Assembly (NCBI GenBank): GCA_046348995.1
Contig: JAXMDB010000008.1
Location: 211,525 to 275,524, forward strand
Source: Hyphomicrobiaceae bacterium
GTDB taxonomy: Bacteria > Pseudomonadota > Alphaproteobacteria > Rhizobiales > Hyphomicrobiaceae
Length of the DNA stretch: 64,000 bases
Direction of reading: 5' to 3'
Positions 6,262-57,246 of the stretch are shown here, piece after piece (within the stretch, counting starts at the first letter, position 1; each line of letters begins with the position of its first letter). Made by a program: the position numbers and the translations under genes. The notes under the pieces are model-generated. The model had not been told where the DNA came from, made no database searches, and worked only from the letters and a program-made list of their open reading frames with translations.

Positions 6262-8850
6262 TCACGCCGCCGCGCGCACGGCCTCACCGTTAATGACCAG
6301 TTTACCGCCCGCAACGCTGATCTTCACGCGGTCGCCATCCTTGACCTTGCCGGAGAGGATCTGCTCGGCGAGCGGATCCTGGACCTGGCGTTGGATCACG
6401 CGCTTCAACGGGCGCGCGCCATAGGCCGGGTCGTACCCCTGATTGGCGAGCCAGGTCTTGGCGGCCGCATCGAGCTCGAGCGTGATCTTGCGATCCGCCA
6501 AGAGCTTCCCGAGCCGGCCGAGCTGGATGTCGACGATCGCCGTCATCTCCTCCTTCTTCAGCCGCTGGAAGAGAATGATCTCGTCGATGCGGTTCAGGAA
6601 CTCCGGACGGAAGCTCGCCTTCACCGCACCCATCACGAGGTCGCGCACTTTCTCGATGTCCTGCGAGGTGTCGAGCAGATACTCCGAGCCTAAGTTCGAC
6701 GTCATGATGATCAGCGTGTTCTTGAAGTCGACGGTGCGGCCCTGGCCGTCGGTGAGGCGGCCGTCGTCGAGCACCTGCAAGAGCACGTTGAAGACGTCCG
6801 GATGCGCCTTCTCGATCTCGTCGAACAGCACGACCTGATACGGCCGGCGCCGAACGGCTTCCGTCAACACGCCGCCCTCCTCGTAGCCGACGTAGCCGGG
6901 AGGCGCGCCAATCAGCCGCGAGACCGAGTGCTTCTCCATGAACTCCGACATGTCGACACGCACCATCGCGTGCTCGTCGTCGAACAGGAACTGCGCGAGC
7001 GCTTTCGTCAGCTCGGTCTTGCCGACGCCGGTCGGACCCAAGAACATGAACGAGCCGATCGGCCGGTTGGGATCCTGCAATCCCGCCCGCGCGCGGCGAA
7101 CAGCCGTCGAGACGGCGCGCACCGCATCCATCTGGCCGATGACGCGCTTACCGATCGCCTCCTCCATGCGGAGCAGCTTGTCGCGCTCGCCTTCGAGCAT
7201 CCGATCGACGGGAATGCCCGTCCAACGCGAGACGACGCCCGCGATATGATCCGGCGTGACCGCCTCCTCGACCATCGGCGAGGCTTTGCCCTCGCTCTCC
7301 TCGATCGCAGCGAGCTTCGTCTCGAGATCGCGGATGAGGCCGTATTTGAGCTCGCCCGCCTTGTTATAGTCACCACGCCGCTCGGCTTTCGCCAGCTCGA
7401 TGCGGGCGTCGTCGAGCGCCTCTTTGATCTTGGTCGCCTCGCCGAGCTTCGACTTTTCGGCCTGCCAGCGCTGCGTCAGCGACGCCGAGCGCTCCTCGAG
7501 ATCGGCGAGCTCCTTCTCGAGGCGTTGCAGACGCTCCTTCGAGGCCGCATCGTCCTCCTTGCGCAGCGCCTCGCGCTCGATCTTCAACTGGATCACGCGC
7601 CGGTCGAGCTCGTCGAGCTCCTCGGGCTTGGAGTCCACCCGCATCCGCAGCCGCGACGCCGCCTCGTCGACGAGGTCGATCGCCTTGTCCGGCAGGAAGC
7701 GGTCGGTGATGTAGCGGTTGAGAGGGTTGCCGAGACCAGCGGAATCGGTGATGCGGATGCCGTGATGCAGCTCGTACTTCTCCTTCAAGCCGCGCAGGAT
7801 CGAGATCGTGTCCTCGACCGTCGGCTCCTCGACGAAGATCGGCTGAAAGCGCCGGGCCAGTGCCGCGTCTTTCTCGACGTTCTTGCGATACTCATCCAGC
7901 GTCGTCGCGCCGACGCAGTGCAGCTCGCCACGGGCGAGCGCGGGTTTGAGCAGGTTCGAGGCGTCCATCGCGCCGTCCGCCTTCCCGGCGCCGACGATGG
8001 TGTGCATCTCGTCGATGAAGAGAATGATGCGCCCGCCCTCAGCCTGCACCTCGGAGAGCACGGATTTGAGCCGCTCCTCGAACTCGCCGCGATACTTCGC
8101 ACCGGCGATGAGCGCGCCCATGTCGAGCGCGAGCAGCTTCTTGTTCTTGAGGCTCTCCGGCACGTCGCCCTTGACGATGCGCTGCGCCAAGCCTTCGGCG
8201 ATCGCGGTCTTGCCGACACCGGGCTCGCCAATGAGGACGGGGTTGTTCTTCGTGCGCCGCGAGAGCACCTGAATAGTGCGGCGGATCTCCTCGTCGCGGC
8301 CGATGACCGGATCGACCTTGCCGGAGGCAGCCGCCTCGGTGAGGTCGCGGGCATACCGCTTCAAGGCGTCGTAGGATTGCTCGGCGGAGGCGCTGTCAGC
8401 CACGCGGCCCTTCCTCAAATCGTTGATGGCTTGGTTGAGAGACGCGGGCGTAACGCCGGCCTCGGCGAGCGCCTTAGCGGCATCCGTATCCTTCTCCATG
8501 GCGATGGCGAGCAGCAGCCGCTCGGCGGTGACGAAGCTGTCGCCGGCCTTGTCGGCGATCTTCTGCGCATTGTCGAAGAGCCGTGCCGTCGCCGGCGCGA
8601 GGTAGAGCTGGCCCGCCCCGCCACCCGAGACCTTCGGCATCTTGGCGAGGACCCGCTCGACGCGGGCGAGCGCATCCTGCGGACGGCCCTGGGCCTTCTG
8701 CATGAGACCCGCGGCCAGGCCCTCCTCGTCGTCGAGGAGCACCTTGAGGATATGCTCTGGGGTGAACTGCTGGTGCCCTTCACGCAGGGCGAGATTTTGC
8801 GCGGCCTGCACGAATCCCCGCGCGCGGTCGGTATATTTCTCGAAATTCAT
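6262..8850 (-). CDS. clpB: ATP-dependent chaperone ClpB (AAA+ disaggregase)
   Basis: Clp N-domain, two Walker A motifs (GEPGVGKT and GPTGVGKT) and a coiled-coil middle domain. The true start [13 protein letters not shown] is at ATG 8850, preceded by GGAGA. The ORF track start at 8964 is an upstream extension. Confidence 0.95.
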
Positions 8851-9116
8851 ATCTGTCTCCTCAGCGCATGACCGCCGCCCAGATGGCGCGACTGCCACAC
8901 CGTCGTCGAAAACCCTCGAGGTCGACCCTTCGAGCCCGGACTCCCGGCGCCCCATCAACCCCACGGCTCATATGGGGATGCAGTGGCTTGGCCGGAAGAG
9001 GCTGCGGCCCGTTGGCCTCATGCTCTTTCGCATCTCGGTGGCGACGGCGGGTACACGAAAGTGCTATGGTTAATTCTGGCCGCCGACGGCCGGTTCATAT
9101 CTGGGGGTATCCTACC

Positions 9117-13422: not shown

Positions 13423-14442
13423 CTAGCCGCCCGTCACCGACATATGCCGGCCGACGGCAGGACGCGCGCTGCGGCGGTCGATGACGAAGTCGTGGCCCTT
13501 CGGCTTACGGGATATGGCTTCCGTGATGGTGGCGTGAAGCGCATCGTCGGAAACGTTGGCGCGGAGCGGCGCCCGCAGGTCGGCCGCATCCTCTTGGCCC
13601 AAGCACATGTAGAGCGTGCCCGTGCAGGTGAGCCGAACGCGATTGCAGCTTTCGCAGAAGTTGTGGGTCAACGGCGTGATGAAGCCGAGACGGCCGCCGG
13701 TCTCCTTCACCTGCACATAGCGGGCGGGCCCGCCGGTCTTGTAGGGAATGTCTTGAAGGGTGAAGCGATCCATCAGCCGCGCGCGCACGATCGAGAGCGG
13801 CAGATACTGATCCGTCCGGTCGTCCTCGATCTCGCCCAAGGGCATCGTCTCGATCAGCGTCAGGTCCATGCCCTGGCCGTGCGCCCAGGTCAGCATGTCC
13901 GCGATCTCGTCCTCGTTGACGCCCTTGAGCGCCACCGCGTTGATCTTGATCGCGAGCCCGGCCTTCTGCGCGGCTTTCAGCCCAGCCTCGACCTTGGTGA
14001 AATCGCCCCAACGCGTGATCGCTTGGAATTTTGCCGGGTCGAGCGTGTCGATCGAAACGTTAATGCGCTTGATGCCAATGGCGGCAAGCTCGTCGGCATA
14101 GCGCGCGAGCTGGCTGCCGTTGGTCGTCAGCGTCAGCTCGTCCAGCGCGCCGGTGCCGAGATGGCGCGAGAGCTGCCGGAGCAGCCATAGGATGTTCTTC
14201 CGCACCAGCGGCTCGCCACCGGTGATGCGAAGCTTCTTGACGCCCCGATCGACGAACGCCGAGCAGAGCCGATCGAGCTCTTCCAGCGTCAGAAGCTCGG
14301 CCTTCGGCAGGAACGTCATGTGCTCGGACATGCAATAGACGCAGCGGAAATCGCAGCGGTCGGTGACCGAGACGCGCAGATAGGTCACATGCCGCCCGTA
14401 GGGGTCGATCATGGGGGTCGTTGTCGATGCGCTCATTGCCAT
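13423..14442 (-). CDS. moaA: GTP 3',8-cyclase MoaA (molybdenum cofactor biosynthesis, radical SAM)
   Basis: CDFRCVYC radical-SAM cluster motif, and a C-terminal second-cluster Cys triad ([18 protein letters not shown]). 339 aa. Confidence 0.9.
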
Positions 14443-21109: not shown

Positions 21110-21598
21110 GTGACCCTGTCGTTGAACCGTCGAATGCTGCTGCTGGCCGTCGCTGGCGCCCTCCTGGGGTTTGCCGGCGCGCCGGACCATGCCTTTGCCA
21201 AAGGAGGCGGGGGCAGCGGCAGTGGCGGGGGTGGTAGCGGCAGCAGTGGCGGTGGCGACAGCGGGGGCGGGGATAGCAGCGGCGGCGGGGACAGCAGCGG
21301 CAAAGGCGGCGGCGACGACGGTGGCGGCGACGACAACGGCGGCAACAACAGCGGTCACGGCAAGCACAACGATCACAAGCGGGCGAAGGATGCCGTCAAG
21401 AGCGGCTCGGCCCGTCCGCTGCCCGAGATCCTGAGCGTCGTCTCGCGGCAATATCCCGGCAAGGTTATCGACGTGAGCCTCAACCGCCGCAGCAATGTCC
21501 TCATGTACGATGTGAAGCTGATCACGCCGGAGGGCAAGATCATCCGCGTCCGCGTCGATGCGGAGAGCGCCGTCATTCTCGGCATCAAGGGGATCTAG
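21110..21598 (+). CDS. Secreted PepSY domain protein with Gly-rich low-complexity linker
   Basis: Signal peptide (LLLAVAGALLGFAGAPDHAFA), then a (GGGS/GGGD) run, then a C-terminal PepSY-like fold (YPGKVIDVSLNRRSNVLMYDVKLITPEGKIIRVRVDAESAVI). Confidence 0.7.
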   Translation: MTLSLNRRMLLLAVAGALLGFAGAPDHAFAKGGGGSGSGGGGSGSSGGGDSGGGDSSGGGDSSGKGGGDDGGGDDNGGNNSGHGKHNDHKRAKDAVKSGSARPLPEILSVVSRQYPGKVIDVSLNRRSNVLMYDVKLITPEGKIIRVRVDAESAVILGIKGI

Positions 21599-21600
21599 CG

Positions 21601-22266
21601 ATGCGCATGCTGGTTGTCGAGGACGAGCCCAAGATCGCGCTCGACGTCTCTCGCGCGCTCGAATCCGCTGGCTACGTCGTCGAGGTGGCGCGGGACGGCG
21701 AGGATGCCTGGTTCCGGGGCGACACGGAGGACTTCTCTCTCGTCGTTCTCGACTTGGGCCTGCCCAAACTCGACGGACTGACCGTGCTGAAACGCTGGCG
21801 TGGCGAAGGCAACCGGACGCCGGTTCTCGTGCTGACGGCCCGGGGCAGCTGGACGGAGCGGGTCGAGGGGATCGACGCCGGCGCCGACGACTATCTCCCC
21901 AAGCCTTTCCAAATGGAGGAGCTGCTCGCCCGGGTCCGCGCGCTCGTGCGCCGCACCAGCGGGGAGGCGACCTCGACCTTGCGGGCCGGCAGCGTGGCGC
22001 TCGACTTGAAGCAGAAGCGCGTCTCGGTCGACGGCATTCCGCTCAATCTCTCGCCGCTCGAGTTCCGCCTGATCAACTTCCTCATGCACAATCGCGGCCG
22101 CGTGGTCTCCCAGCAGGAGCTTACCGAGCAGCTCTACAATCAGGACTTCGAGCGCGAGAGCAACTCGATCGAGGTGCTGATCGGGCGCTTGCGCCGCAAG
22201 CTCAAGGTCGATCTCATCGAGACCCGCCGCGGCCACGGCTATGTGGTGCCGGACGAAAGCCCATGA
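21601..22266 (+). CDS. OmpR family two-component response regulator
   Basis: Receiver domain with the phospho-acceptor Asp (LVVLDLGLP) and a winged-helix DNA-binding C-terminus (HGYVVPD). Its stop overlaps the kinase start (ATGA). Confidence 0.9.
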   Translation: MRMLVVEDEPKIALDVSRALESAGYVVEVARDGEDAWFRGDTEDFSLVVLDLGLPKLDGLTVLKRWRGEGNRTPVLVLTARGSWTERVEGIDAGADDYLPKPFQMEELLARVRALVRRTSGEATSTLRAGSVALDLKQKRVSVDGIPLNLSPLEFRLINFLMHNRGRVVSQQELTEQLYNQDFERESNSIEVLIGRLRRKLKVDLIETRRGHGYVVPDESP

Positions 22267-47160: not shown

Positions 47161-48522
47161 CTACTCGTCCGCCAGCGCATACTTCTTGAGCAGCCGGTAC
47201 GTATTGCGCTCGCTGATGCCGAGCACCTCGGCGATGCGGGAGCGGTGGCCGTTGTATTTGACGACGAGGTCGCCGATGTAGCGGCGCCTGATTTCCTCGA
47301 GCGTCGGCTCGTGGTCGAAGCTCAGCACCGACTGATCGGCTCCCGCGCCCGGCGTGCCCTGCAGCATGATGTGGCCGGCATGGATGACCGGTGCGTCGCC
47401 CGAGACGAGGATCGCGCGCTCGATGACGTTCCTGAGCTCGCGGATGTTGCCGGGCCACGCGTAGCTCGTCAGCAGGTCGATCGCATCCTTGCCGAGCCGC
47501 TTCATCTTCGCGCGCTGGAACGAGCGCGTCTCGAGGAAGCGGTCGGCGATGAGCGCGATGTCCTCGCGCCGGTGGCGGAGCGGCGGCACATTGATGAGCA
47601 CGGTCGCCAGGCGATAGTAGAGGTCGGAGCGGAAGCGGGCGTCGTCGATGAGCCCGAGCAGGTTGCGGTTGGTCGCGGCGACGAAGCGGACGTCGCTCGA
47701 CAGGCTCTGCACGCCGCCGACGCGCCGGAACTCTCCCGTCTCGAGCACGCGCAGCAACTTCGCTTGCATGCCCGCCGGCAGCTCGCCGATCTCGTCCAGG
47801 AAGACGGTGCCGCCTTCGGCAACCTCGATGAGGCCGTCCTTGCGGCGCTCGGCCCCCGTGAAGGCGCCGCGCTCGTGGCCGAACAGCTCCGACTCGAACA
47901 GCGTGTCCTGCAGCGTCGTCGCGTCGATGGCGACGAAGTTCGATTTTGCCCGCTGCGACAGGAGATGGATCGACTTCGCCACCAGCTCCTTGCCGACTCC
48001 ACTCTCGCCCTCGATCAGGATCGTCGAGTTGGAGGGCGCGACGAGCTCGATCAGGCGCACCATCTCGAGGAAGGCCGGGCTGCGGCCCACCATCAATTGT
48101 GTGAGGCTCGGATTGAGCTGATCGCGGTAGTAGTCGAAGCTGCGCTTGAGCGAGCTCGTCTCCAGAACGCGATTGACGGCGAGCTCGAGCTCGGACGGAT
48201 TGACCGGCTTGACGAGGTACTCGGCGGCGCCCGCCCGCATGCTCTCGACCGCCTGCTTGATGCTGCCGCTCGCCGTCAGCACGATGACCGGGCAATGCGT
48301 CGTCAGCTCCGGCAGGCACGCGCTGCCTTCGGCATCCGGCAGCTTCATGTCGAGCATCACGAGCGAGGGGTCGCCGGCATGCAGCGCCGCCTTGGCCTCG
48401 ACCCAGGTGTGCGCACTCGTCGTGAAGTGCCCCATGCGCCGCATCTGCTCGACGAGCAGCCGGTTGAGAGTCCGGTCGTCCTCGATGACGAGAACGCGCT
48501 TGCTGTGACGTGCCGCTTTCAT
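47161..48522 (-). CDS. Sigma-54-dependent response regulator (NtrC/Fis family enhancer-binding protein)
   Basis: Receiver domain (D in MLDMKLP). AAA+ sigma-54 interaction domain with Walker A GESGVGKE, the GAFTGA motif (ERGAFTGAE) and Walker B (FLDEIGEL). C-terminal Fis-type HTH. 453 aa. Confidence 0.9.
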   Translation of the reverse strand: MKAARHSKRVLVIEDDRTLNRLLVEQMRRMGHFTTSAHTWVEAKAALHAGDPSLVMLDMKLPDAEGSACLPELTTHCPVIVLTASGSIKQAVESMRAGAAEYLVKPVNPSELELAVNRVLETSSLKRSFDYYRDQLNPSLTQLMVGRSPAFLEMVRLIELVAPSNSTILIEGESGVGKELVAKSIHLLSQRAKSNFVAIDATTLQDTLFESELFGHERGAFTGAERRKDGLIEVAEGGTVFLDEIGELPAGMQAKLLRVLETGEFRRVGGVQSLSSDVRFVAATNRNLLGLIDDARFRSDLYYRLATVLINVPPLRHRREDIALIADRFLETRSFQRAKMKRLGKDAIDLLTSYAWPGNIRELRNVIERAILVSGDAPVIHAGHIMLQGTPGAGADQSVLSFDHEPTLEEIRRRYIGDLVVKYNGHRSRIAEVLGISERNTYRLLKKYALADE

Positions 48523-50369
48523 GGGAGAGCCGCCTGTCGATCGGCCGACGGCATGGTGATGCGGAATCGCGTGCCCGAACCGCTCTTGCTCTCGACCGTG
48601 ATGGTGCCGCCCCAGCTTTTCAGGATCTCGCGACAGATCGGCAGGCCGAGGCCGGTGCCGTGCGCGCCATCGGCCCGGCGGCTCCAGAACGGCTCGAAGA
48701 TGCGCTGCTGATGCTCGAGAGGAATGCCGCAGCCGGTGTCGGCGAAATCGATCTCGAGGGAGTCGCCCGCGCGGCGGCCGGTGATCGTCAGCACGCCGCC
48801 TTCGGGCATGGCGTGAAACGCGTTCTGGGCGATGTTGAGCGCGAGCATGCGCATGTCGCTGTCGCTGGCGATGACTCTGAGATCGGGCGCGATCGCAGAC
48901 CGGATCTCGATCTTGCCCCCTAGAGCCTCGGCCGACAGGAGCGAGAGCGTATCGGCGACCACGTCGTTGAGGACGACGAGCTCGGGCTCTCCGCTCGACG
49001 GCGAGGACAGTTTGAGAAGCCGCTCCGTCACCTCGATGCAGCGGCCGATCTGCTGCTCGATCACCGGCACATAGGTGCGCGCGCCATCAAACCGCTCCTC
49101 GGCGATCTCGCGGCTGACGGCGCTCAGGCCGAACTGGATGGACGCCAGCGGATTGTGAATCTCGTGGGCGACGCCGGCGGCGAGGTAGCCGATCTCCGAC
49201 AGCCGCTGCTCCTGCGAGACCTTCAAGTCCTGGCTCAGATCGCGCACGACCTCGACGATCACATCGCGCCGCTCGCCCTTCACCTCGATCGACAACGGGG
49301 CGGCGGACACCTCGACATAATACTGCGTCGCGTCCTTGCGCACGTGACGATGCCGGCAGCTGACTTGGGATTGGCCCTTGCGCATCTCCTCGAGCGGACA
49401 CGTGACAAGCGTCGGCGCGCAGGGCCGGTCGCGACCGTGGCTCGAGAGGTAGCAAGGTCCGCCGACGATCTCGCCGCGTGCGTAGCCCGTCTGCGCCGCG
49501 AAGGCCGTGTTCGCCATAAGTACGGTGTAGTCGGCGTCGATGACGCGCACGCCGTCGGGCATGCCGTCGATGAGCGCCTGCAGGTTGGCCTCGCGCCGCT
49601 CGATGCTGCGAATGCCGTCGCCGATCTTTGCGGCCATGGCGTTGAACGATCTGGCGAGCGCTGCCATCTCGTCATGACCGCGCTCGGGCAGGCGCTCTTC
49701 CAAATAGCCATGCGCGATCGCCGCAGTCGCCGCGTCGAGACGCGCGAGCGGCGCGAGCACTGCCCGGTGCAGAACCGAAGCGATGCCGGCGATGGCGACC
49801 GCGAGCACCGTGCCGCCGGCGCCGCCGAGTGCCAAGGTCGCGCGGAGGATGTTGCCGAGGATGGAGCCGTCGGCATAGTCGACGACGATCGTGGACGCGG
49901 CGTCCCCGCCGCGGGCAAGCGTCGCCACGGTTCGCATGACGTCGCCTCGGTCGCCCTCGACGACACCGGCGCGTATCCCCTCACGCCCCTCGACCGGCCG
50001 GCACTCCGGACAGGTCCGATCCGTGACAGCTACCGTGGCTGTCCCGGTCGCGGCAAGCACCGTTCCATCGCGCGCCAAAACCGCGATTCCCACGACACCC
50101 GGATGCTGGCCGGCCGCGTCGATGGCCGTCCGCAGGGCCGCGCGATCGGACAGCGGCGCGCGGCTCTCGAGCGTGGCCTGTGCGAGATCGCTGATCGCTA
50201 CCGCGGCGTTCGTGCGATCCGACAGCATGTGGTTGCGATAGGCGAGCATCAGGATGAGGAGAAAGAAGAGCGAGGCGAGTGACGGGATGACGATCACGGT
50301 CATGAGCAGCCGGCGGCGCAGGCTGCCTGCTATCCAGTCCCGAACCGCTGAGACCGCTCGCATGCTCAT
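48519..50369 (-). CDS. PAS domain sensor histidine kinase (membrane; HAMP-like, PAS, HisKA, HATPase_c)
   Basis: TM helix (LLMTVIVIPSLASLFFLLILMLA), several Cys clusters (CPECRP; CYLSSHGRDRPCAPTLVTCP), H-box (GVAHEIHNPLASI) and ATPase boxes (DTGCGIP, GTGLGLPI). The probable start is the internal ATG at about 50369, adjacent to the upstream gene's stop. The ORF track extends to 50441. Confidence 0.85.
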   Translation of the reverse strand: MSMRAVSAVRDWIAGSLRRRLLMTVIVIPSLASLFFLLILMLAYRNHMLSDRTNAAVAISDLAQATLESRAPLSDRAALRTAIDAAGQHPGVVGIAVLARDGTVLAATGTATVAVTDRTCPECRPVEGREGIRAGVVEGDRGDVMRTVATLARGGDAASTIVVDYADGSILGNILRATLALGGAGGTVLAVAIAGIASVLHRAVLAPLARLDAATAAIAHGYLEERLPERGHDEMAALARSFNAMAAKIGDGIRSIERREANLQALIDGMPDGVRVIDADYTVLMANTAFAAQTGYARGEIVGGPCYLSSHGRDRPCAPTLVTCPLEEMRKGQSQVSCRHRHVRKDATQYYVEVSAAPLSIEVKGERRDVIVEVVRDLSQDLKVSQEQRLSEIGYLAAGVAHEIHNPLASIQFGLSAVSREIAEERFDGARTYVPVIEQQIGRCIEVTERLLKLSSPSSGEPELVVLNDVVADTLSLLSAEALGGKIEIRSAIAPDLRVIASDSDMRMLALNIAQNAFHAMPEGGVLTITGRRAGDSLEIDFADTGCGIPLEHQQRIFEPFWSRRADGAHGTGLGLPICREILKSWGGTITVESKSGSGTRFRITMPSADRQAALP

Positions 50370-50839
50370 TGCCGCGCGAGCCGGAGCAGGAGCGATTCTT
50401 GGGGTGCCTCGTCGGCATCGATCTCGACCACGCGCGAGCATCGCGCCGGCAAATCGGCCTCGTGCGCGGCAATCGGGATGACGACGGGGTGGCCCCGCGG
50501 CGTATCGAGGAAATGCGCGAGAAACGCACGACGCTCGCTCGCGGGCTTCGTCGCCAAGAGCGCCTCGGCATTCTGCAACACCAGACCGGAGGGCGCGATG
50601 CCATCGGCGATCGCCTCGTCGATGGCGGTGAGGGGCAAGCGTGCGGCGTCCCAGCCGAGCGGCTTCAGGCGCTCAGCACGGAAATCCACATACGCAAGTC
50701 CCAGCGCGCGCGCCATCTCCTCGACGAGTGCGGGGTGATAGCGCGTCAGCTTGGCGATGAAGCCACCCCGGCGGCCGTGCGCATCGAGGCATGCCTCGAT
50801 GGCGGTCAACCAGCGCGGTGCACCGGGCTGCTGGGTCAT
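50366..50839 (-). CDS. Hypothetical protein (157 aa), first gene of the kinase/EBP operon
   Basis: It is co-oriented with, and abuts, the kinase gene. No signal peptide or recognisable motif. Confidence 0.45.
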   Translation of the reverse strand: MTQQPGAPRWLTAIEACLDAHGRRGGFIAKLTRYHPALVEEMARALGLAYVDFRAERLKPLGWDAARLPLTAIDEAIADGIAPSGLVLQNAEALLATKPASERRAFLAHFLDTPRGHPVVIPIAAHEADLPARCSRVVEIDADEAPQESLLLRLARQ

Positions 50840-51193
50840 CTCCTAATCTCTCGCGATTCCATTTGGGTAAGCGCCCCCACGGCGTCCCCCGATCGGGACG
50901 CCCTCTGCGCTCACGATGTGTGCATTGTTTCTCTGCTAATGGGCTCGCGCTTTGCGCCCGATCAATTCGGATGAGCGAGTTGATCAGCGCTCGTCCTACC
51001 CGATCGGCGCTACCCCCGAAGCGAGCCTGACAAGTTGTCCGAAGCGAAAAGCGAGGCGAAACAAGGCAAACCGGTTGGCAACCCAAAAGCGACCCGACAG
51101 AATGGCAGATTCGCTGAGCCGATCCGGAGTTGAAATCACCCAGGCTAAGTCATAAGCTATTGTTTTTAAATCACTATTTTATCGTCGGTAAGG

Positions 51194-51210
51194 TTGGCAC
51201 ACGGCTTGCT
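51194..51210 (+). promoter_or_regulatory. Sigma-54 (RpoN) -24/-12 promoter
   Basis: TTGGCACacggcTTGCT matches the TGGCAC-N5-TTGCW consensus with the conserved GG and GC dinucleotides correctly spaced. It sits ~50 nt upstream of the ATG at 51258 and is preceded by an unusually AT-rich stretch (51150-51185) with an IHF-like AATCACTATTTTA. Confidence 0.65.
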
Positions 51211-51257
51211 GTGACGAGGTTCGTTAACGAATTCTCACTCGAGCAAGGTCGCATCGT

Positions 51258-51587
51258 ATGTTCGCAGCCGATCGCCGTCGGGTCGCAAATCTCCGCTCCG
51301 TGTTCGCCGCATCGCTCATCGTGCCATGTCTCGCCGTGCCCGCAGTCGCTGCGGGGCAGGCGTGGATCGCGGGGACTGCTCCCTCCATGCGCCCGGCCGA
51401 CGCGCCAGTGCTGGCGGCGGTCGACCACGACAAGGCTTGGTTCAAGCGAGCGCTGGCTGGCGTCTCGAAACCGGTACCGCCGAGCCTCGATTTTCTGAAG
51501 GATCAGGGCGGCTGGTTCACACCGTTCACGCACCCCGGAATGACGGGGCGCTACGACATTCGCAACCTCCACAACCAAGAGCCCTAG
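51258..51587 (+). CDS. Small secreted hypothetical protein (109 aa), first gene of the sigma-54 operon
   Basis: Signal peptide (AASLIVPCLAVPAVAAGQA). The conserved-looking C-terminus (GWFTPFTHPGMTGRYDIRNLHNQEP) matches no family I recognise. Confidence 0.5.
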   Translation: MFAADRRRVANLRSVFAASLIVPCLAVPAVAAGQAWIAGTAPSMRPADAPVLAAVDHDKAWFKRALAGVSKPVPPSLDFLKDQGGWFTPFTHPGMTGRYDIRNLHNQEP

Positions 51588-51719
51588 CCAACCGAACGTC
51601 TGGCAGAGCGCCAATCCCTTGGTGCGCTGCCGATAGCTGATCGCTGGGCTGCGATCGAACGCATGTGGCGGCCCCCAGCCCGAAACCGGGACCGCCTCGC
51701 AATACAGGAGCTTGAAACT

Positions 51720-52184
51720 ATGAAACGTATCGCAGCTGTCGCCGCCATCGCCCTCCTCTCCTCGTTCGGCGCTGCCTTCGCCGAGGACGAGCAGGCCGGC
51801 ATGTCCGGCATGAGCGGCATGTCCGGCATGGCCGGCGGCAACGCCGACTGGGTTTGCACGATGTGGGTCGACGCCGGCCAGATCGGCATGTCCGGGATGG
51901 GCGGCATGTCGGGCATGGGCGGCATGAATGGCATGAGTGGCATGGACGGCATGTCGGGCATGAATGGCATGTCGGGCATGGACGGCATGAGCGGCATGAA
52001 TGGCATGTCCGGCATGGATGGCATGAACGGCATGTCCGGGATGGATGGCATGAGCGGCATGAACGGCATGTCGGGCATGAACGGCATGTCCGGGATGGAC
52101 GGCATGTCGGGCATGAGCGGCATGGGCGGTCAGCCCGGCCAGGCTTGCGCTCAGTGGACGCACAAGACGCAGGTGAAGCAGTAA
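51720..52184 (+). CDS. Secreted methionine-rich Gly-Met-X tripeptide-repeat protein
   Basis: ATG 51720 preceded by CAGGAG. Signal peptide MKRIAAVAAIALLSSFGAAFA. About 31 GM(S/N/D/G) tripeptide repeats are bracketed by Cys residues (DWVCTMW ... QACAQWTHK). The underlying DNA is a 9-bp tandem array ggcatg(tcc/agc/aac/gac). Confidence 0.8.
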   Translation: MKRIAAVAAIALLSSFGAAFAEDEQAGMSGMSGMSGMAGGNADWVCTMWVDAGQIGMSGMGGMSGMGGMNGMSGMDGMSGMNGMSGMDGMSGMNGMSGMDGMNGMSGMDGMSGMNGMSGMNGMSGMDGMSGMSGMGGQPGQACAQWTHKTQVKQ

Positions 52185-52283
52185 TCGCACCTGCCCGGGT
52201 GGAGGCTGCGGAACCCGCGTCCGCGGTCTCTACCCGGACTTCTCAGATCCTTTGCATGCGAATGCGTTTCGCGAGGGGGCGAA

Positions 52284-53201
52284 ATGAAAAGGCAGTATGG
52301 CCTCGTGCCAGTCGTCGGAGCCGTTGCGATTTTGGCGGCAGGTCTGCTGCTCAGTCTGGGGGAGGGCGGCCGGTCAGGTGCTGGAGCTCAAGCAGGCCAG
52401 ACCGGATCGACCTCTCCCAGCGCCATCGAGGAGCTCGCCAAGGCGAAAAAGTCCTATCCCCGCGCCGTGTGGACACCATTGCACTTCACGCCCGCCATCG
52501 ACACGGCGACGAACGAGCAATGCCTCACCTGCCATCAGGAGATTCTGAAAGCGAAGGTTCGCGAGGTGTCGCCAGCCGGTCTTGCCGCCGCGGACACCAC
52601 CGCTTGGTATCAGACGCTCGACACCTATGCGGGCAAGCAGGAAACCTTCCACGCCCGCCACTTGAAGACGCCGCTCGCCAAGGAGGTCATGAACCTCACC
52701 TGCAATTTCTGCCATCGCGGCCACGATCCGCGTGAGGAGATGCCGGGCTCGAGCGCGACGACGACAGCAGCGGCCCTCGGCGATTTCACTTTCCGCAAGA
52801 CCGTCAATCCGTCGAAAACCTGCCTCCTTTGCCACGGCCGCTACCCGCAAGAGGTCATGACCGGAGTTGAGGGCTCCTGGCCCGAGGCCCGCAAGACCAT
52901 CGAGGATGCGTCCTCGCCGGATACACAGAACGGCTGCCTCGTCTGCCACAACATGGACGCCGGCATCCGCACAGTTCGCCATCAGGTGAGCTACCTCAAG
53001 GCCGACGCCATCGAGGCGCGGGCCAAGAAAGGCTCCTCCGACCTCTGCTACGGCTGCCACGGCGGACGTGCCTGGTACCGCATCAGCTACCCCTACCCGC
53101 GCCACCCGTGGAAGGACATGCCGGACGAGATGCCCGACTGGGCCAAGAGCCGGCCGACCGCCTCCGACCCGCGCTACGCGCTCGACAAGAAGACACCGTG
53201 A
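52284..53201 (+). CDS. Pentaheme c-type cytochrome (membrane-anchored or secreted)
   Basis: N-terminal hydrophobic segment (LVPVVGAVAILAAGLLLSL). Five CxxCH motifs: CLTCH, CNFCH, CLLCH, CLVCH, CYGCH. RBS GAGGGG. Confidence 0.85.
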   Translation: MKRQYGLVPVVGAVAILAAGLLLSLGEGGRSGAGAQAGQTGSTSPSAIEELAKAKKSYPRAVWTPLHFTPAIDTATNEQCLTCHQEILKAKVREVSPAGLAAADTTAWYQTLDTYAGKQETFHARHLKTPLAKEVMNLTCNFCHRGHDPREEMPGSSATTTAAALGDFTFRKTVNPSKTCLLCHGRYPQEVMTGVEGSWPEARKTIEDASSPDTQNGCLVCHNMDAGIRTVRHQVSYLKADAIEARAKKGSSDLCYGCHGGRAWYRISYPYPRHPWKDMPDEMPDWAKSRPTASDPRYALDKKTP

Positions 53202-53212
53202 GGGATGCCGTC

Positions 53213-55807
53213 ATGATCGACCCGAAACACGCGGGCAGCTGGCACGTCGAGACGCCCGTTCGCCTGAACCTCAATCGCCGCGATGTGCTCCGCGGACTGC
53301 TGGCGTCGAGCGCCATCGGCCTCGTGCCGCTCACCACGCTGACCTCGAGCAAGCCAGCCGCGGCCTTCGCCTACGAGCCATACCCAAAGGACGACGAGCT
53401 GACGACGGTCGTCACCAGCTGCGCGCACAATTGCGGCTCGCGTCATATGCTGGTCGCGCACAAGAAGGGCGACGTCATCGTCCGTCTGTCGACCGACGAC
53501 GGCCGCTATCAGGAGGACGGCTTCTTCGGCAAGGACACCGAGGAGGAGCCGCAGATCCGTGCCTGCCTGCGCGGCCGCTCCTACCGCTCGCGCCTCTATT
53601 CGCCCGAGCGCCTGCTCTATCCGATGAAGCGGGTCGGCAAGCGCGGCGAGGGCAAGTTCAAACGCGTGTCGTGGGACGAGGCGTTGGGCGGCATCGCCGA
53701 GAAGATGACGGAGATCAAGGCAAAGTACGGCCCGACCGCGCTGCTCGACCAGAGCTACGCCGGCGCCTCCTATGGCGTGCTGCACAAGTCGGATCAGATC
53801 GAAGGCCTGCTCGGCCGCTTCCTCGGCATGTTCGGCTGCCGCACGAACTCGTGGTCGGTGCCGTCCTATCAGGCGACGACCTTCTCCTCGCGCATGACCT
53901 TCGGCACCATCGAGGATGGCAACGAGGACGACACCTTCGCGCACTCCAAGCTCATCATCATGTGGGGCTGGAATCCGGCCTACACCTTCCACGGCGGCAA
54001 CACGTTCTACTACATGCGGCTCGCCAAGCAGCGCGGCTGCAAGTTCGTGCTCGTCGACCCGCAATACACGGACTCGGCCTCTGTCTATGACGCCTGGTGG
54101 ATCCCGATCCGGCCCAACACGGACGCCGCGATGCTTGCCGGCATGGCCCACCACATCTTCACCAACAACTGGCACGACCAAGCCTTCATCGACCGCTTCT
54201 GCCAGGGCGTGGATGCCGGCACGATGCCCCAGTGGGCCAAGGGCAAGGAGAGCTTCAAGGACTATATCCTCGGCACCATGGACGGGCAGCCGAAGACGCC
54301 CGAGTGGGCGGCCGAGATTTGCGGCGTCAAAGCCGAGGACATCAAGAAGCTCGCCGAGATGTATGCGACGACGAAGCCTGCGGCATTGAAAGCGTCGTGG
54401 GCGCCCGGCCGCAATGCATACGGCGAGCAGTACAGCCGCATGGCCGCCGCCGTGCAGGCGATCACCGGCAACATCGGCAAGCTCGGCGGGTCGTCGGAAG
54501 GCGTCGGCAAGGCCTGGCATCCGGAGGCGGTCGCCTATCCCTACGACGAGAACGCCAACATCTGGTTCGCCTCGATCAAGTCGGACCGCTGGGCGCACTG
54601 CGTGCTGAACTACCCCAACGTCAAGCGCGAGGAGATCGGTTGCTGGCCGAGGAACGACAAGCTCGACGGCACCATTCCCAACATCAAGGGGATCTTCTGG
54701 CAGGGCTCGGACTGGTTCAACCAGCTGACGAACATCAACAAGATGATCGAGGCGGTGCAGAAGCTCGAGCTCGTCGTCTGCATGGACTCGACGATCACGC
54801 CGTCAGGACTTTGGGCCGACTACCTGATCCCGATCGCCACGCATTTCGAGCGGCATGACACGGCGCTGCCCTGGTACAAGGGCCACTACTACATCCATCG
54901 CCCGCGTGTGATTGCCCCGCTCGGCGAGAGCCGCACGGATATCCAGGTCTTCACCGAGCTCGCCTATCGCCTGGAAGAGCTCGATCCGAAGACCCTCAAA
55001 GACTTCGGCAAGCGCTACAATCCGCGCGCGACCCGGGACTATTTCAACGACAATACCGCCGTCGACGAGGAGTATCTGACCCACTGGTGGAACGAGAAGG
55101 TGATGAAGCACCAGGGCGTCACCATGAGCTGGGAGGACTTCAAGAAGCACGGCGTCTACAAATTCAAGCTCGCCGAGCCGCACGTGGCTTTCCGCCAGCA
55201 GATCGAGACCGGGCTGCCGTTCTTGACCCCGTCGGGCAAGATCGAAATCCTCTCCTCGACCCTCGCGCAATACAAGGACTGGACGAAGACCGCCTACGGC
55301 TACGAGATTCCGGCGATCCCGAAGTGGATCGAGCCGTGGGAGTGGCTCGGCAACAAGGAGAAGACGGGCAAGCACCCGTTCCATCTGATCTCGCCGCATC
55401 CACGCTGGCGGACACACTCGATCTTCAACAACATCCCGTGGCTGCGCGAGACCTTCGAGCAGGAGGTGACGCTCAACGCCGCCGACGCCGCCAAGCTCGG
55501 CATCAAGACCGGCGACACGGTCGAGGTGTTCAACGATCGCGGCAAGTGCGTCGTGCCGGCCTACGTCACCGAGCGCTGCATGCCGGGCGTCGCGGTGTTG
55601 CACGAAGGGGCGTGGATGGATCTCGACAAGAACGGCGTCGACCGCGCGGGCAACCCGGACTTCCTGACCTTGGACGAGCCCTCGCCAGCCGGTGCCTTCG
55701 CCTACAACACCGTGCTCGTGAACATCGCCAAGTCGGAGCTCGAGCATCGCCCGGGCTGGGACCGGCTCGCGACCGCGCGCTCGTCCGTCTTCCGCCGCGA
55801 CATGTAA
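53213..55807 (+). CDS. Tat-exported molybdopterin oxidoreductase catalytic subunit (DMSO reductase family)
   Basis: Twin-arginine signal (NRRDVLRGLLASSAIGLVPL). It has the molybdopterin oxidoreductase fold, a molybdopterin dinucleotide-binding C-terminal domain and an atypical N-terminal Cys motif (SCAHNCGSRH...IRAC). 864 aa. Confidence 0.9.
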   Translation: MIDPKHAGSWHVETPVRLNLNRRDVLRGLLASSAIGLVPLTTLTSSKPAAAFAYEPYPKDDELTTVVTSCAHNCGSRHMLVAHKKGDVIVRLSTDDGRYQEDGFFGKDTEEEPQIRACLRGRSYRSRLYSPERLLYPMKRVGKRGEGKFKRVSWDEALGGIAEKMTEIKAKYGPTALLDQSYAGASYGVLHKSDQIEGLLGRFLGMFGCRTNSWSVPSYQATTFSSRMTFGTIEDGNEDDTFAHSKLIIMWGWNPAYTFHGGNTFYYMRLAKQRGCKFVLVDPQYTDSASVYDAWWIPIRPNTDAAMLAGMAHHIFTNNWHDQAFIDRFCQGVDAGTMPQWAKGKESFKDYILGTMDGQPKTPEWAAEICGVKAEDIKKLAEMYATTKPAALKASWAPGRNAYGEQYSRMAAAVQAITGNIGKLGGSSEGVGKAWHPEAVAYPYDENANIWFASIKSDRWAHCVLNYPNVKREEIGCWPRNDKLDGTIPNIKGIFWQGSDWFNQLTNINKMIEAVQKLELVVCMDSTITPSGLWADYLIPIATHFERHDTALPWYKGHYYIHRPRVIAPLGESRTDIQVFTELAYRLEELDPKTLKDFGKRYNPRATRDYFNDNTAVDEEYLTHWWNEKVMKHQGVTMSWEDFKKHGVYKFKLAEPHVAFRQQIETGLPFLTPSGKIEILSSTLAQYKDWTKTAYGYEIPAIPKWIEPWEWLGNKEKTGKHPFHLISPHPRWRTHSIFNNIPWLRETFEQEVTLNAADAAKLGIKTGDTVEVFNDRGKCVVPAYVTERCMPGVAVLHEGAWMDLDKNGVDRAGNPDFLTLDEPSPAGAFAYNTVLVNIAKSELEHRPGWDRLATARSSVFRRDM

Positions 55808-55819
55808 GGGGGCACCACG

Positions 55820-56491
55820 ATGGCCAACGCCAAAAAGCTCGACAGGACGCAGGTGGACGAGGCAATCGCGCGCCGCGACCGCGCCACCTACGAGCCCGTC
55901 AAACCCGAATTGCAGCTCGGCTTCATTCACAACAACGTCGACTGCATCGGTTGCCGCGCCTGCGAGATCGCCTGCAAGGACAAGAACGGACTGCCGCCGG
56001 GCCCGCGCTTCCGCCGCGTCATGTACGTCGAGGGCGGCACGTTCCCGGAGGTCTTCGCCTACAAGGTGAACATGTCATGCAACCACTGCGCGGAGCCGGC
56101 CTGTCTGCCGTCGTGCCCGACGGGCGCGATCTTCAAACGTGAGAAGGACGGTATCGTCGATATCGACTCGACGCTGTGCATCGGCTGCCGCCGGTGTGAG
56201 GCAGCCTGCCCGTTCGGGGCGCCGCAGTACATCCCCGAGTCCAACATCGTCGCCAAGTGCAACATGTGCGTCGACGAGATCGAAGCCGGCCGCAAGCCCT
56301 ACTGCGTCATGGCCTGCATGATGCGCGTGCTCGACATCGGCCCGATCGACAAGTTGCGGGACGGCACCTGGGAGACGAAGGCGCGCGGCCCTCAGGATAC
56401 GGTCGTCGGCCAAGTGCAGAACATGGCCGACCCCGAGCTCACCCATCCCTCGATCGTCTACGTGGCCCATCCGAAAGGCGTGGTGAAGTGA
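55820..56491 (+). CDS. 4Fe-4S ferredoxin-type electron-transfer subunit (DmsB-like, four clusters)
   Basis: Four Cys clusters: CIGCRACEIAC...C, CNHCAEPACLPSCP, CIGCRRCEAACP, CNMCVDEIEAGRKPYCVMAC. No signal peptide, as expected for Tat hitch-hiking with the catalytic subunit. Confidence 0.9.
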   Translation: MANAKKLDRTQVDEAIARRDRATYEPVKPELQLGFIHNNVDCIGCRACEIACKDKNGLPPGPRFRRVMYVEGGTFPEVFAYKVNMSCNHCAEPACLPSCPTGAIFKREKDGIVDIDSTLCIGCRRCEAACPFGAPQYIPESNIVAKCNMCVDEIEAGRKPYCVMACMMRVLDIGPIDKLRDGTWETKARGPQDTVVGQVQNMADPELTHPSIVYVAHPKGVVK

Positions 56492-57246
56492 TGCGCACAG
56501 TGTCGATCGCGAGGCGCGAGGAGCCGTCTGCTGAGAGCCAGCTCCGCCAAGCGGTCGCCGCCGATCTGCGACTGCTCGCTGCCCTTCACGATCGAGAGCC
56601 GACGGCCGCCCTGCTCGACGAGTTGCGGCGCGCACCGTTCGCCTCGCGACTCGGTCTCGTGCTCGACAGCGAAGGCGCGCGGCAGGCGCTTGCGGCCTTC
56701 GACGGTGCGCTCGCTGCACTGCCGGCCACCATCGATGGGAGCGTCGTCGACGATCTTGCGGCAGGATACGCCGACATCTACCTGACGCATCACTTGCGTG
56801 CGTCGCCCCTCGAGTCGGTCTGGCTCGACGAGGATCACCTCGTCCGCCAGGAGCCGATGTTCGAGGTTCGCAAGTGGTACCGGCACTACGGCCTCGGCAC
56901 CGCCGATTGGCGCAACCGGCCGGACGATCACCTCGTGCTCGAGCTTCAGTTCATCGCCGAGCTCGTCAGTCTGGAAGCAGCGCCTGCCGCACTTGGCGAT
57001 GCGGCCCGCTTCCTCGACGAGCACCCTCTCAAATGGATCGGCCTGTTCGCAGAGCGTGTGGCCACGAAGGGCGGACACGACTATTTCGCGGCGCTGGCGC
57101 TCTTGACCTCGGGCTATCTGCACGAGCTGCGGGCACGGCTGACGACCATTACCGGGATCGGCGTTCCCCTTGTCGCCGAGGCCAAGGACTCGGACAGGCT
57201 CCGGACATCCCCGGATCCGTCAAAACCTCAGACGGCGGGGTGCTGA
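56491..57246 (+). CDS. TorD/DmsD family redox-enzyme maturation chaperone
   Basis: ATG 56491 overlaps the upstream stop. All-helical, with TorD-like conserved Trp/Asp/His context (RPDDHLVLELQFIAEL). Confidence 0.7.
   Translation: MRTVSIARREEPSAESQLRQAVAADLRLLAALHDREPTAALLDELRRAPFASRLGLVLDSEGARQALAAFDGALAALPATIDGSVVDDLAAGYADIYLTHHLRASPLESVWLDEDHLVRQEPMFEVRKWYRHYGLGTADWRNRPDDHLVLELQFIAELVSLEAAPAALGDAARFLDEHPLKWIGLFAERVATKGGHDYFAALALLTSGYLHELRARLTTITGIGVPLVAEAKDSDRLRTSPDPSKPQTAGC

Follow-up and report, generated by a model that had tools for sequence, protein, structure and literature searches.

A 64,000-nucleotide (nt) stretch of a Hyphomicrobiaceae genome (NCBI GenBank assembly GCA_046348995.1; contig JAXMDB010000008.1, positions 211,525 to 275,524; the whole stretch is referred to here as the window) carries a six-gene operon that pairs a secreted, methionine-rich protein made of Gly-Met-X triplets (the GM-repeat protein) with a periplasmic molybdoenzyme of the dimethyl sulfoxide (DMSO) reductase superfamily. 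Comparison of related loci indicated that this pairing is kept throughout one enzyme lineage. We tentatively propose that methionines of the repeat protein act as a recyclable sink and are re-reduced by the DmsAB-type enzyme, i.e., that the two maintain a periplasmic redox cycle of methionine and methionine sulfoxide (Met-SO). A first reading of this DNA (the original prediction) had suggested, as a candidate function, that the Met-rich protein and the molybdoenzyme act together to scavenge oxidants; the joint action now has strong comparative support, and oxidant scavenging is what we infer.

The operon (Table 1) follows a sigma-54 promoter that is the only match to the consensus in the 64-kb window (0.04 expected by chance). 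The end of its -12 element is 49 nt from the first ATG, and the six co-directional genes are separated by successive gaps of 132, 99, 11, 12, and -1 nt. In 37 of 53 related loci, a sigma-54 consensus with at most 1 mismatch occurs ahead of the operon on the same strand; the antisense control gave 5 sites. Searches for inverted repeats upstream of the promoter (i.e., candidate activator-binding sites) and for an intrinsic terminator downstream of the chaperone gene found none. The original prediction had described all six genes and their promoter, together with control by a sigma-54 activator; the genes, their motifs or domains, and the promoter were all confirmed, as were a divergent kinase gene and an activator gene. 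Both a -24 GG/-12 GC promoter and an activator with a GAFTGA motif are thus present at this operon.

A genome scan for relatives of the catalytic (A) subunit returned at least 595 stretches from Alpha-, Beta-, and Gammaproteobacteria, and the clade, which is put at no fewer than 595 species, comprises more than 120 database clusters at 78 to 82% identity. Locus comparisons used the best 80 of these at least 595 relatives, with open reading frames (ORFs) called by a simple script. The lineages represented were Hyphomicrobiaceae, Thermopetrobacter, Competibacter, Dechloromonas, Azonexus, Zoogloea, "Candidatus (Ca.) Thiodiazotropha," Sedimenticola, relatives of Beggiatoa and Thiomargarita, Thiothrix, and Chromatiaceae. 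The predominant gene order was small protein, repeat protein, cytochrome, A, B, chaperone, kinase, and activator. Where enough upstream DNA was available, a GM-repeat ORF lay upstream of A on the operon strand in 66 of 72 loci (92%), spanning three proteobacterial classes; the synteny search for such genes beside DMSO-reductase-family genes, which the original prediction had proposed as a check, thus came out positive. The repeat gene follows the small gene in Alpha- and Gammaproteobacteria and precedes it in many Betaproteobacteria. Some loci have two repeat ORFs, and some Hyphomicrobiaceae carry a second copy between the cytochrome gene and A.

The clade is well isolated: in a search of 50%-identity representatives, the nearest full-length outsiders were 54% and 46% identical to the A subunit, and the remainder were at most 42% identical. 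Directly upstream of the 54%-identical sister enzyme are a multiheme cytochrome gene and the end of a gene for a (GPGM)n protein, i.e., a different Met repeat (L087, positions 1 to 165, an incomplete ORF on a contig of just 4 kb). The 46%-identical relative has no Met-rich ORF anywhere in its 15-kb locus, which is ordered A-D-B, followed by a small cytochrome, a kinase, and a sigma-54 activator, so that the sigma-54 regulators are kept. A 42%-identical relative lies in a classical dmsABC-plus-chaperone locus with DmsC, beside a CRP/FNR-type regulator, and the recovered DNA contains no repeat gene. Two further outgroup contigs also have no repeat gene, which is weak evidence at their lengths of only 3.5 to 5.5 kb. 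Because the sister carries the (GPGM)n gene and relatives of 46% identity or less have no repeat gene in the DNA recovered, we conclude from this comparison that the partnership between repeat protein and enzyme is specific to this enzyme lineage.

In the GM-repeat protein of the window we counted 31 GMx triplets, split into runs of 4 and 27, in agreement with the roughly 31 tripeptides and 25% Met given originally. Methionine makes up 21% of the whole protein and 24% of the mature form (i.e., with the 21-residue signal peptide removed), along with 29% Gly and 12% Ser. The underlying DNA is an 18/27-nt tandem array (51884 to 52129). A single-sequence AlphaFold2 model had a predicted local distance difference test (pLDDT) value of 46 and showed no structure in the repeats, and the protein is accordingly predicted to be a disordered chain. 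Of 55 complete repeat ORFs from related loci (91 to 353 amino acids [aa]), 50 have a signal-peptide-like N terminus; their pooled composition is 35% Gly, 24% Met, 15% Ser, 0.6% His, and 0.7% Cys. Judged from these ORFs, the conserved feature is the density of Met in a Gly-rich, flexible chain and not any particular sequence. The W-x-C-x-x-W motifs of the window protein also occur in alpha-type GM-repeat proteins.

Other readings of the repeat gene were rejected. Collagen matches in Pfam and NCBIfam arise from Gly at every third residue, a periodicity artifact; NCBIfam scores for collagen-like adhesins (Scl/Lcl) were 38 to 59, against cutoffs of 325 to 500, and the repeats have no Pro. A spurious ORF is ruled out by the ribosome-binding site, the signal peptide, the G+C content at third codon positions (0.87), and the orientation shared with the operon, and also because 50 of the 55 homologs retain the signal-peptide-like N terminus. 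Two ORFs on the minus strand (51174 to 52190 and 51584 to 52123; "HAHAVHA..." and "PDMPFMPDMP...") and the shifted "+1" frame are by-products of the tandem array and not genes. In some assemblies, the repeat gene is broken by runs of N (e.g., L009, about 8190 to 8900; L079, about 8030 to 8600), and GM-repeat genes are likely undercalled or collapsed in draft genomes.

The A subunit belongs to the DMSO reductase superfamily with a molybdenum-bis(pyranopterin guanine dinucleotide) (Mo-bisPGD) cofactor, as judged from Pfam matches (PF00384, 1.8e-45; PF01568, 3.4e-24). It carries the twin-arginine motif NRRDVL, and its ATG is preceded by a GAGGGA ribosome-binding site. Its best sequence matches in the PDB were DMSO and trimethylamine N-oxide (TMAO) reductases, with Rhodobacter DMSO reductase at the top (1eu1; E = 1.5e-74), and it is 35% identical to Escherichia coli DmsA over the full length. 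The best subfamily model was TIGR02166 (dmsA_ynfE), at 602.6 bits and below the 777.7 cutoff. Scores also fell short of the substrate-specific models for DmsA (430 versus 1600), YnfE (456 versus 1675), and TorA (296 versus 909), and were far below that for YnfF. The nearest relatives (54 to 41% identical) likewise stay under the TIGR02166 cutoff, and canonical DmsA-like proteins are about 40% identical to the A subunit. By these scores, the A subunit is a superfamily member outside every curated DmsA, YnfE, and TorA family. In the B subunit, 16 Cys are arranged as four ferredoxin groups, and the score with TIGR02951 was 195.7, just short of the cutoff (214.1). The chaperone matched Nitrate_red_del (PF02613) at 1.9e-22, above the cutoff, which places it in the TorD/DmsD/NarJ family, and the same gene call was obtained on an identical metagenome contig. 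The profile searches suggested with the original prediction thus recovered a DMSO-reductase-family A subunit, a DmsB-like B subunit, and a TorD-type chaperone. A DmsC/NrfD-type membrane subunit for quinol oxidation was found neither in the operon of the window nor among the gene clusters common to related loci.

Active-site residues were aligned among the A subunit, E. coli DmsA, YnfE, YnfF, TorA, TorZ, and BisC, and eight clade members. The Ser ligand of Mo (equivalent to DorA Ser147; in WSVPSYQ) and the active-site Tyr (equivalent to DorA Tyr114; in SYAGAS) are both retained and are conserved in the aligned clade members. This Tyr is shared with DmsA, BisC, and DorA and is missing from E. 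coli TorA. The equivalent of DorA Trp116 is Gly. By alignment, therefore, the A subunit carries the Ser and Tyr of S-oxide reductases of the DmsA/DorA/BisC type. The motif of the FS0 cluster (window positions 53390 to 53420; SCAHNCGSRH...RACLRG) reads C-x3-C-x3-H in place of a four-Cys motif: the window protein and each of the eight aligned clade members have His at the position of the third Cys, whereas E. coli DmsA, YnfE, and YnfF have Cys. The match to the Pfam Fe4S4 domain was below its cutoff. This His would imply an unusually ligated or altered cluster. A perchlorate reductase (PcrABCD-like), considered on account of the sigma-54 control and the multiheme cytochrome, was rejected: the A subunit resembles DmsA and DorA, has a Ser ligand, and scored 236 with the type II model TIGR03479, against a cutoff of 985.

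In an alignment of 41 homologs, each of the five CxxCH motifs of the cytochrome was scored as conserved in no fewer than 95%. In Pfam, it gave weak multiheme matches (PF03264, 17.1; cutoff, 24.1), and it matched the DmsE decaheme family weakly (TIGR03508, E = 7.8e-6). BLASTP against E. coli TorC returned motif-level matches only, with no significant similarity, and no significant similarity was found to PDB sequences either. The gammaproteobacterial homologs have cleavable Sec signal peptides. A TorC/NapC/NirT identity was rejected on these three grounds (i.e., PF03264 score, lack of TorC similarity, and cleavable signal peptides); the pentaheme c-type cytochrome of the original prediction is retained. 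Because the gammaproteobacterial homologs have cleavable signal peptides, the cytochrome is probably a soluble electron shuttle rather than a quinol dehydrogenase.

The small protein of 109 aa at the head of the operon matched nothing in Pfam or NCBIfam and nothing meaningful in the PDB. Its gene is syntenic in most loci, and 18 residues are invariant across 24 homologs, with a conserved motif GGWFTPFTHPGMTGRYD(I/L)R that follows the pattern W-x-T-P-F-x3-G-M-x3-Y-D-x-R. Modeled alone with AlphaFold2, it was mostly unstructured (pLDDT 60), with the lowest values over the conserved motif. The model suggests that the protein probably folds only on a partner and that it is possibly an extra subunit or adaptor.

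Related loci contain accessory genes as well. Many of them encode, after the chaperone, a cytoplasmic poly-ferredoxin (about 360 aa; several 4Fe-4S motifs) that the operon of the window is without (L062, 14167 to 15249; homologs in 37 loci). By our comparison, it resembles maturation factors of the NapF type and may itself be one. In several loci a class I cytochrome c gene follows the chaperone gene, and gammaproteobacterial loci add such a cytochrome together with a secreted protein of about 260 aa that has no family match (L031, 6231 to 7058; homologs in L034, L040, L043, L045, L050, L059, L062, and L071). In five of the loci with this protein, a second sigma-54 consensus is located about 3.7 to 4.4 kb upstream of A; in L031, this site immediately precedes the gene for the protein. 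The protein contains three "W...DGS.i.Y.P"-like motifs that resemble the "YFQITPQGQIFFYP" spacer inside gammaproteobacterial GM-repeat proteins. Its counterpart in "Ca. T. endoloripes," judged from synteny, is A3193_10180.

The kinase and activator genes are syntenic in most loci; they are divergent and upstream in the window and lie downstream in many related loci. In the activator, Response_reg, Sigma54_activat, and AAA_lid_14 scored above the Pfam cutoffs and the Fis-type HTH_8 below its cutoff (16.8 versus 22 bits); the GAFTGA motif starts from residue 219 in our numbering. The periplasmic domain of the kinase proved to be poorly conserved, and conservation instead falls on the cytoplasmic PAS domain, in which Cys330, Cys341, and Cys348 (C-x10-C-x6-C) are invariant. 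A Cys-containing PAS domain of this kind suggests sensing of redox state, O2, or a metal cluster. The true start of the kinase is probably Met25, near 50369, and the stop codon of the gene for a 157-aa protein abuts this probable start. The 157-aa protein matched no Pfam or NCBIfam family; homologs directly precede the kinase gene in about 10 loci, mostly of Hyphomicrobiaceae.

Two other genes of the window are recorded here. A moaA gene for molybdenum cofactor biosynthesis (radical SAM and Mob_synth_C domains; 13423 to 14442, minus strand) lies 37 kb away from the operon. A secreted protein encoded at 21110 to 22266 (plus strand) has a Gly/Ser-rich stretch (GGGGSGSGGGGSGSSGGG) and a PepSY domain, and a gene for an OmpR-type response regulator directly follows.

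Table 1. Features of the operon region in the window and of the corresponding locus in "Ca. Thiodiazotropha endoloripes" (mRNA values as percentages of total mRNA counts in five clams)
Source	Feature	Coordinates	Strand	Description
Window	NtrC-class sigma-54-dependent response regulator	47161..48522	-	Response_reg, Sigma54_activat, AAA_lid_14; GAFTGA
Window	Sensor histidine kinase	48519..50441	-	HAMP-PAS-HisKA-HATPase (Pfam domains)
Window	Conserved 157-aa protein	50366..50839	-	No family match; just ahead of kinase gene
Window	Sigma-54 (-24/-12) promoter	51195..51210	+	TGGCAC-N5-TTGCT, TGGCACACGGCTTGCT; perfect consensus
Window	Small secreted protein, 109 aa	51258..51587	+	First gene of the operon
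Window	Secreted GM-repeat protein, 154 aa	51720..52184	+	Signal peptide, 31 Gly-Met-X triplets, two W-x-C-x-x-W motifs
Window	Pentaheme c-type cytochrome, 305 aa	52284..53201	+	Five CxxCH motifs
Window	Tat-exported Mo-bisPGD catalytic (A) subunit, DmsA-like	53213..55807	+	Pfam Molybdopterin and Molydop_binding
Window	Four-cluster Fe-S (B) subunit, DmsB-like, 223 aa	55820..56491	+	Four Cys groups
Window	TorD/DmsD-type maturation chaperone, 251 aa	56491..57246	+	Pfam Nitrate_red_del
Ca. T. endoloripes	peg.2060, sensor histidine kinase	2266442-2268298	-	0.08-0.17% mRNA
Ca. T. endoloripes	peg.2061 (A3193_10180), hypothetical	2268502-2269281		1.1-2.3% mRNA
Ca. T. endoloripes	peg.2062 (A3193_10185), annotated "Ffh SRP54"			Gene at repeat position; 0.29-0.85% mRNA
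Ca. T. endoloripes	peg.2063, hypothetical	2271476-2272231		0.44-1.1% mRNA
Ca. T. endoloripes	peg.2064, anaerobic DMSO reductase chain A, 854 aa	2272257-2274821		1.7-4.3% mRNA
Ca. T. endoloripes	peg.2065, 4Fe-4S ferredoxin	2274839-2275504		0.8-1.15% mRNA
Ca. T. endoloripes	peg.2066, TorD chaperone	2275504-2276277		0.25-0.40% mRNA

Published expression data cover a lucinid symbiont that, by synteny, carries the operon. In "Ca. Thiodiazotropha endoloripes," Petersen et al. (2016) reported the operon to be among the most highly expressed, alongside the aa3 oxidase, and called this high expression "intriguing" for an anaerobic reductase; the mRNA values in Table 1 are from Supplementary Dataset 1 of that study. 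The spacing of peg.2060 to peg.2066 agrees gene for gene with that of Thiodiazotropha loci L031 and L043. Because of this agreement, peg.2062 would be the GM-repeat gene and peg.2063 the cytochrome gene, an assignment based on synteny and annotation and not on the sequence of peg.2062. The label "Ffh SRP54" is probably a misannotation through methionine richness. In the proteome, peptide-spectrum matches numbered 531 for A, 279 for peg.2061, 159 for B, and 68 for the cytochrome. The repeat protein did not appear in the part of these data that was covered, an uninformative absence given that it offers trypsin hardly any cleavage sites. In a 2025 preprint, the enzyme is still regarded as a DMSO reductase whose role is unknown, and in the literature it is known only as the unexplained, highly expressed "DMSO reductase" of lucinid symbionts. 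Full-text literature searches, whose coverage mostly excluded subscription journals, found no description of this operon or of the pairing, in line with the original view of an undescribed architecture.

A Met/Met-SO cycle is the simplest model to account for a Met repeat that is conserved, clade specifically, inside the operon. Under this model, a disordered (Gly-Met-Ser)n protein would be exported and would expose about 30 thioethers with only small residues as neighbors. Two-electron oxidants, for which chloramines, peroxynitrite, oxidants from a host, and hypochlorite or chlorite arising in co-metabolic chlorate reduction are candidates, would turn the thioethers into Met-SO, which the DmsAB-type enzyme, exported by twin-arginine translocation (Tat), would return to methionine. 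Electrons would pass from the respiratory chain through the pentaheme cytochrome and the four Fe-S clusters of B to A; the net effect would be to drain oxidants into the electron-transport chain. The system would be switched on by the kinase and the sigma-54 activator, with the cytoplasmic Cys-containing PAS domain as the conserved sensing element. Met-SO is a plausible substrate because it is the protein-bound analog of DMSO and because the S-oxide reductase residues are kept; moreover, the flexible, Gly/Ser-flanked chain would let Met side chains reach a Mo site buried at the bottom of a funnel. We infer the substrate role of the repeat protein, the identity of the oxidants, the electron route, and the role of the small protein. 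A stronger claim would make a methionine pool carried by a protein the dedicated, recyclable substrate of a respiratory-type molybdoenzyme, in a new periplasmic module that channels two-electron oxidants into the electron-transport chain; this is possible and is put forward with slightly more reserve. Parts of the model have precedents. A sacrificial cycle of a Met-rich peptide has been described for MrpX and YedY/MsrP (PMC4436054), protein-bound Met-SO is reportedly reduced by a periplasmic DMSO reductase (PMC7402097), and DmsABC of Haemophilus influenzae reportedly belongs to a hypochlorite-inducible defense (PMC11024254).

Several observations weigh against this model. The function of the clade members is predicted from sequence comparison. 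A search with the low-complexity GM-repeat query returned 75 heterogeneous matches, by which the reverse association could be addressed only partly, and GM stretches also occur on class I cytochromes c, secreted DsrE-like proteins, a NapC-type tetraheme cytochrome, and a CusB/YtkA-like protein (metagenome proteins with such tails or linkers are P0146, P0147, P0150, P0164, P0202, and P0204). GM tails on other periplasmic redox or metal proteins mean that the module is not exclusive to this operon and has a wider use. Very high constitutive expression would be unusual for a stress-defense system and is typical of a main respiratory enzyme. The repeat gene is missing from six of the 72 loci; barring a copy at another place in the genomes concerned, the enzyme may be able to function in its absence. 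Finally, a 2025 study of lucinid symbionts found transcripts annotated dmsB and dmsD among the top transcripts and higher during upwelling, which is reported to lower oxygen. Together with the Cys-PAS kinase, this rise fits an anaerobic respiratory reductase equally well.

The last three observations also favor an alternative in which the enzyme serves respiration as a dedicated reductase of a small S- or N-oxide or an oxyanion (DMSO, free Met-SO, TMAO, chlorate, or selenate) and the repeat protein is an accessory and not the substrate; it might then be a sacrificial shield against a reactive product (e.g., chlorite) or a binder of product or substrate. We consider this alternative somewhat unlikely. 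The set of A, B, and TorD-like chaperone and the active-site residues are those of the respiratory DmsA/YnfE type, and a dedicated two-component system with a Cys-PAS domain suggests control by O2 or redox state. Many carriers come from groups known in general to denitrify or to oxidize sulfur at oxic-anoxic interfaces. However, small-molecule respiration does not account for a repeat gene that is kept in 92% of loci across three classes, or for its exchange for (GPGM)n in the sister clade, and the classical dmsABC locus that we examined (42% identical) has no repeat gene. Nor does it sit easily with the lack of a DmsC/NrfD-type subunit in the operon and among shared gene clusters, or with an A subunit that falls under every curated substrate-specific model (DmsA, YnfE, and TorA).

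Two further alternatives concern the repeat protein as a metal binder and the direction of catalysis. The GM-repeat protein could be a periplasmic Cu(I)/Ag(I) buffer or chaperone with an indirect link to the molybdoenzyme, e.g., by protecting Fe-S/Mo or other periplasmic metalloenzymes from copper, which we regard as improbable. MxxM thioether motifs bind Cu(I)/Ag(I), as in the "Mets" motifs of Ctr1 and the Met-rich segments of CopA/PcoA/CusB. Two points here also count against a methionine sink: the repeat gives a continuous MxxM spacing, i.e., a thioether-only Cu(I)/Ag(I) pattern, and one metagenomic CusB/YtkA-like protein has a similar GM-repeat stretch. The W-x-C-x-x-W motifs of alpha-type proteins are also compatible with metal binding. 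Nevertheless, neither cop, cus, or pco genes nor regulators of the CopRS/CusRS type were found among the gene clusters common to the 80 loci, and the widely shared clusters belong only to the operon itself. His, which is usual in the Met-rich segments of bacterial periplasmic copper resistance proteins, makes up only 0.6%; sigma-54 regulation is shared with the enzyme, and the association is clade specific to one molybdoenzyme. A copper protein beside an unrelated reductase, the main alternative named in the original prediction, is thus disfavored by the clade-wide pairing and by the lack of copper genes and regulators. We regard as very improbable that the enzyme works oxidatively, i.e., as a dehydrogenase for a thioether or other reduced compound that passes electrons out through the pentaheme cytochrome to soluble cytochromes and terminal oxidases, with the repeat protein in some unrelated structural or tethering role. 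The apparently soluble gammaproteobacterial cytochrome, the class I cytochrome c after the chaperone gene in several loci, and the coexpression with the aa3 oxidase in Thiodiazotropha agree with this direction. It is, however, without precedent among Ser-ligated enzymes: to our knowledge, all characterized DmsA/DorA-type enzymes with a Ser ligand are reductases, and the thioether dehydrogenases known so far (Ddh) are Asp-ligated enzymes of type II. The A subunit matches the type II model TIGR03479 poorly (236 versus 985), and the Met-repeat partner would be left without explanation.

If the methionine-sink model is correct, it would give a function to a large, conserved clade of molybdoenzymes that are automatically annotated as "anaerobic DMSO reductase" and to a repeat protein that pipelines miss or mislabel (as "Ffh SRP54" or collagen-like). 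The module would be present in at least 600 proteobacterial species, among them large sulfur bacteria, lucinid symbionts, and members of lineages under the names Dechloromonas, Competibacter, and Hyphomicrobium. In "Ca. Thiodiazotropha," the "anaerobic DMSO reductase" would not serve DMSO respiration but would form the reductase half of a Met/Met-SO cycle, which would explain why an "anaerobic" enzyme is among the most abundant symbiont transcripts and proteins next to an aa3 oxidase.

Among known systems, DmsABC and YnfEFGH (S-oxide and selenate reductases of E. coli and H. influenzae) share the Tat signal, the Ser ligand, the Tyr, the DmsB-like subunit, and the DmsD/TorD chaperone. They differ in having a DmsC/YnfH anchor, for which the operon described here has a pentaheme cytochrome c, and in the third FS0 Cys, which is replaced here by His; the operon described here also encodes a Met-repeat protein and a small secreted protein, and regulation is by sigma-54 whereas the classical dmsABC locus examined has a CRP/FNR-type regulator. 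DorA/DorC and TorA/TorC (Rhodobacter and E. coli) are similar in combining a soluble periplasmic S- or N-oxide reductase with a pentaheme c-type cytochrome and a TorD-family chaperone, but DorA and TorA are monomeric, without an Fe-S subunit or FS0 domain, the Tor and Dor systems have no Met-rich partner, and the cytochrome here has no significant similarity to TorC. The DmsEFAB system of Shewanella likewise has DmsAB without DmsC and draws electrons from a multiheme c-type cytochrome; that cytochrome has ten hemes instead of five, and the outer membrane porin component has no counterpart here. We know of no Met-rich protein in the Shewanella system. Like the Ctr1 Mets motifs, CopA/PcoA, and the N terminus of CusB, the repeat has recurrent MxxM spacing within a flexible segment that faces the periplasm or the cell exterior; it is set apart from such Cu(I)/Ag(I)-binding segments by the near absence of His (0.6%), the lack of nearby copper resistance genes or regulators, and the consistent linkage to a molybdoenzyme.

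The closest parallel in logic is MrpX with YedY(MsrP)-YedZ(MsrQ) of Azospira suillum and other Proteobacteria (PMC4436054), in which, as here, a small, secreted, Met-rich protein (20 to 24% Met) is encoded in the transcription unit of its reductase. Both systems have a Tat-exported periplasmic molybdoenzyme that could in principle reduce sulfoxides, and for both the proposed logic is a sacrificial Met sink recycled with respiratory electrons. Neither MsrP nor MsrQ is encoded in the operon of the window, which does encode a secreted, Met-rich protein together with the reductase, as in the MrpX system. The reductase here is a Mo-bisPGD heterodimer of the DmsAB type, whereas MsrP has a sulfite oxidase fold; the donor is a pentaheme cytochrome c instead of the heme b/flavin membrane protein MsrQ; and regulation is by a kinase and a sigma-54 activator instead of the extracytoplasmic function sigma factor SigF with NrsF. 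The Met-rich proteins differ as well, in that MrpX combines Met with 44% charged residues and the protein here is a Gly-Met-Ser tandem repeat, and the present operon adds a conserved small protein and a chaperone. If the proposed function is correct, the Met-sink principle of MrpX and MsrPQ would have arisen independently on another enzyme scaffold, with another electron input and another mode of regulation.

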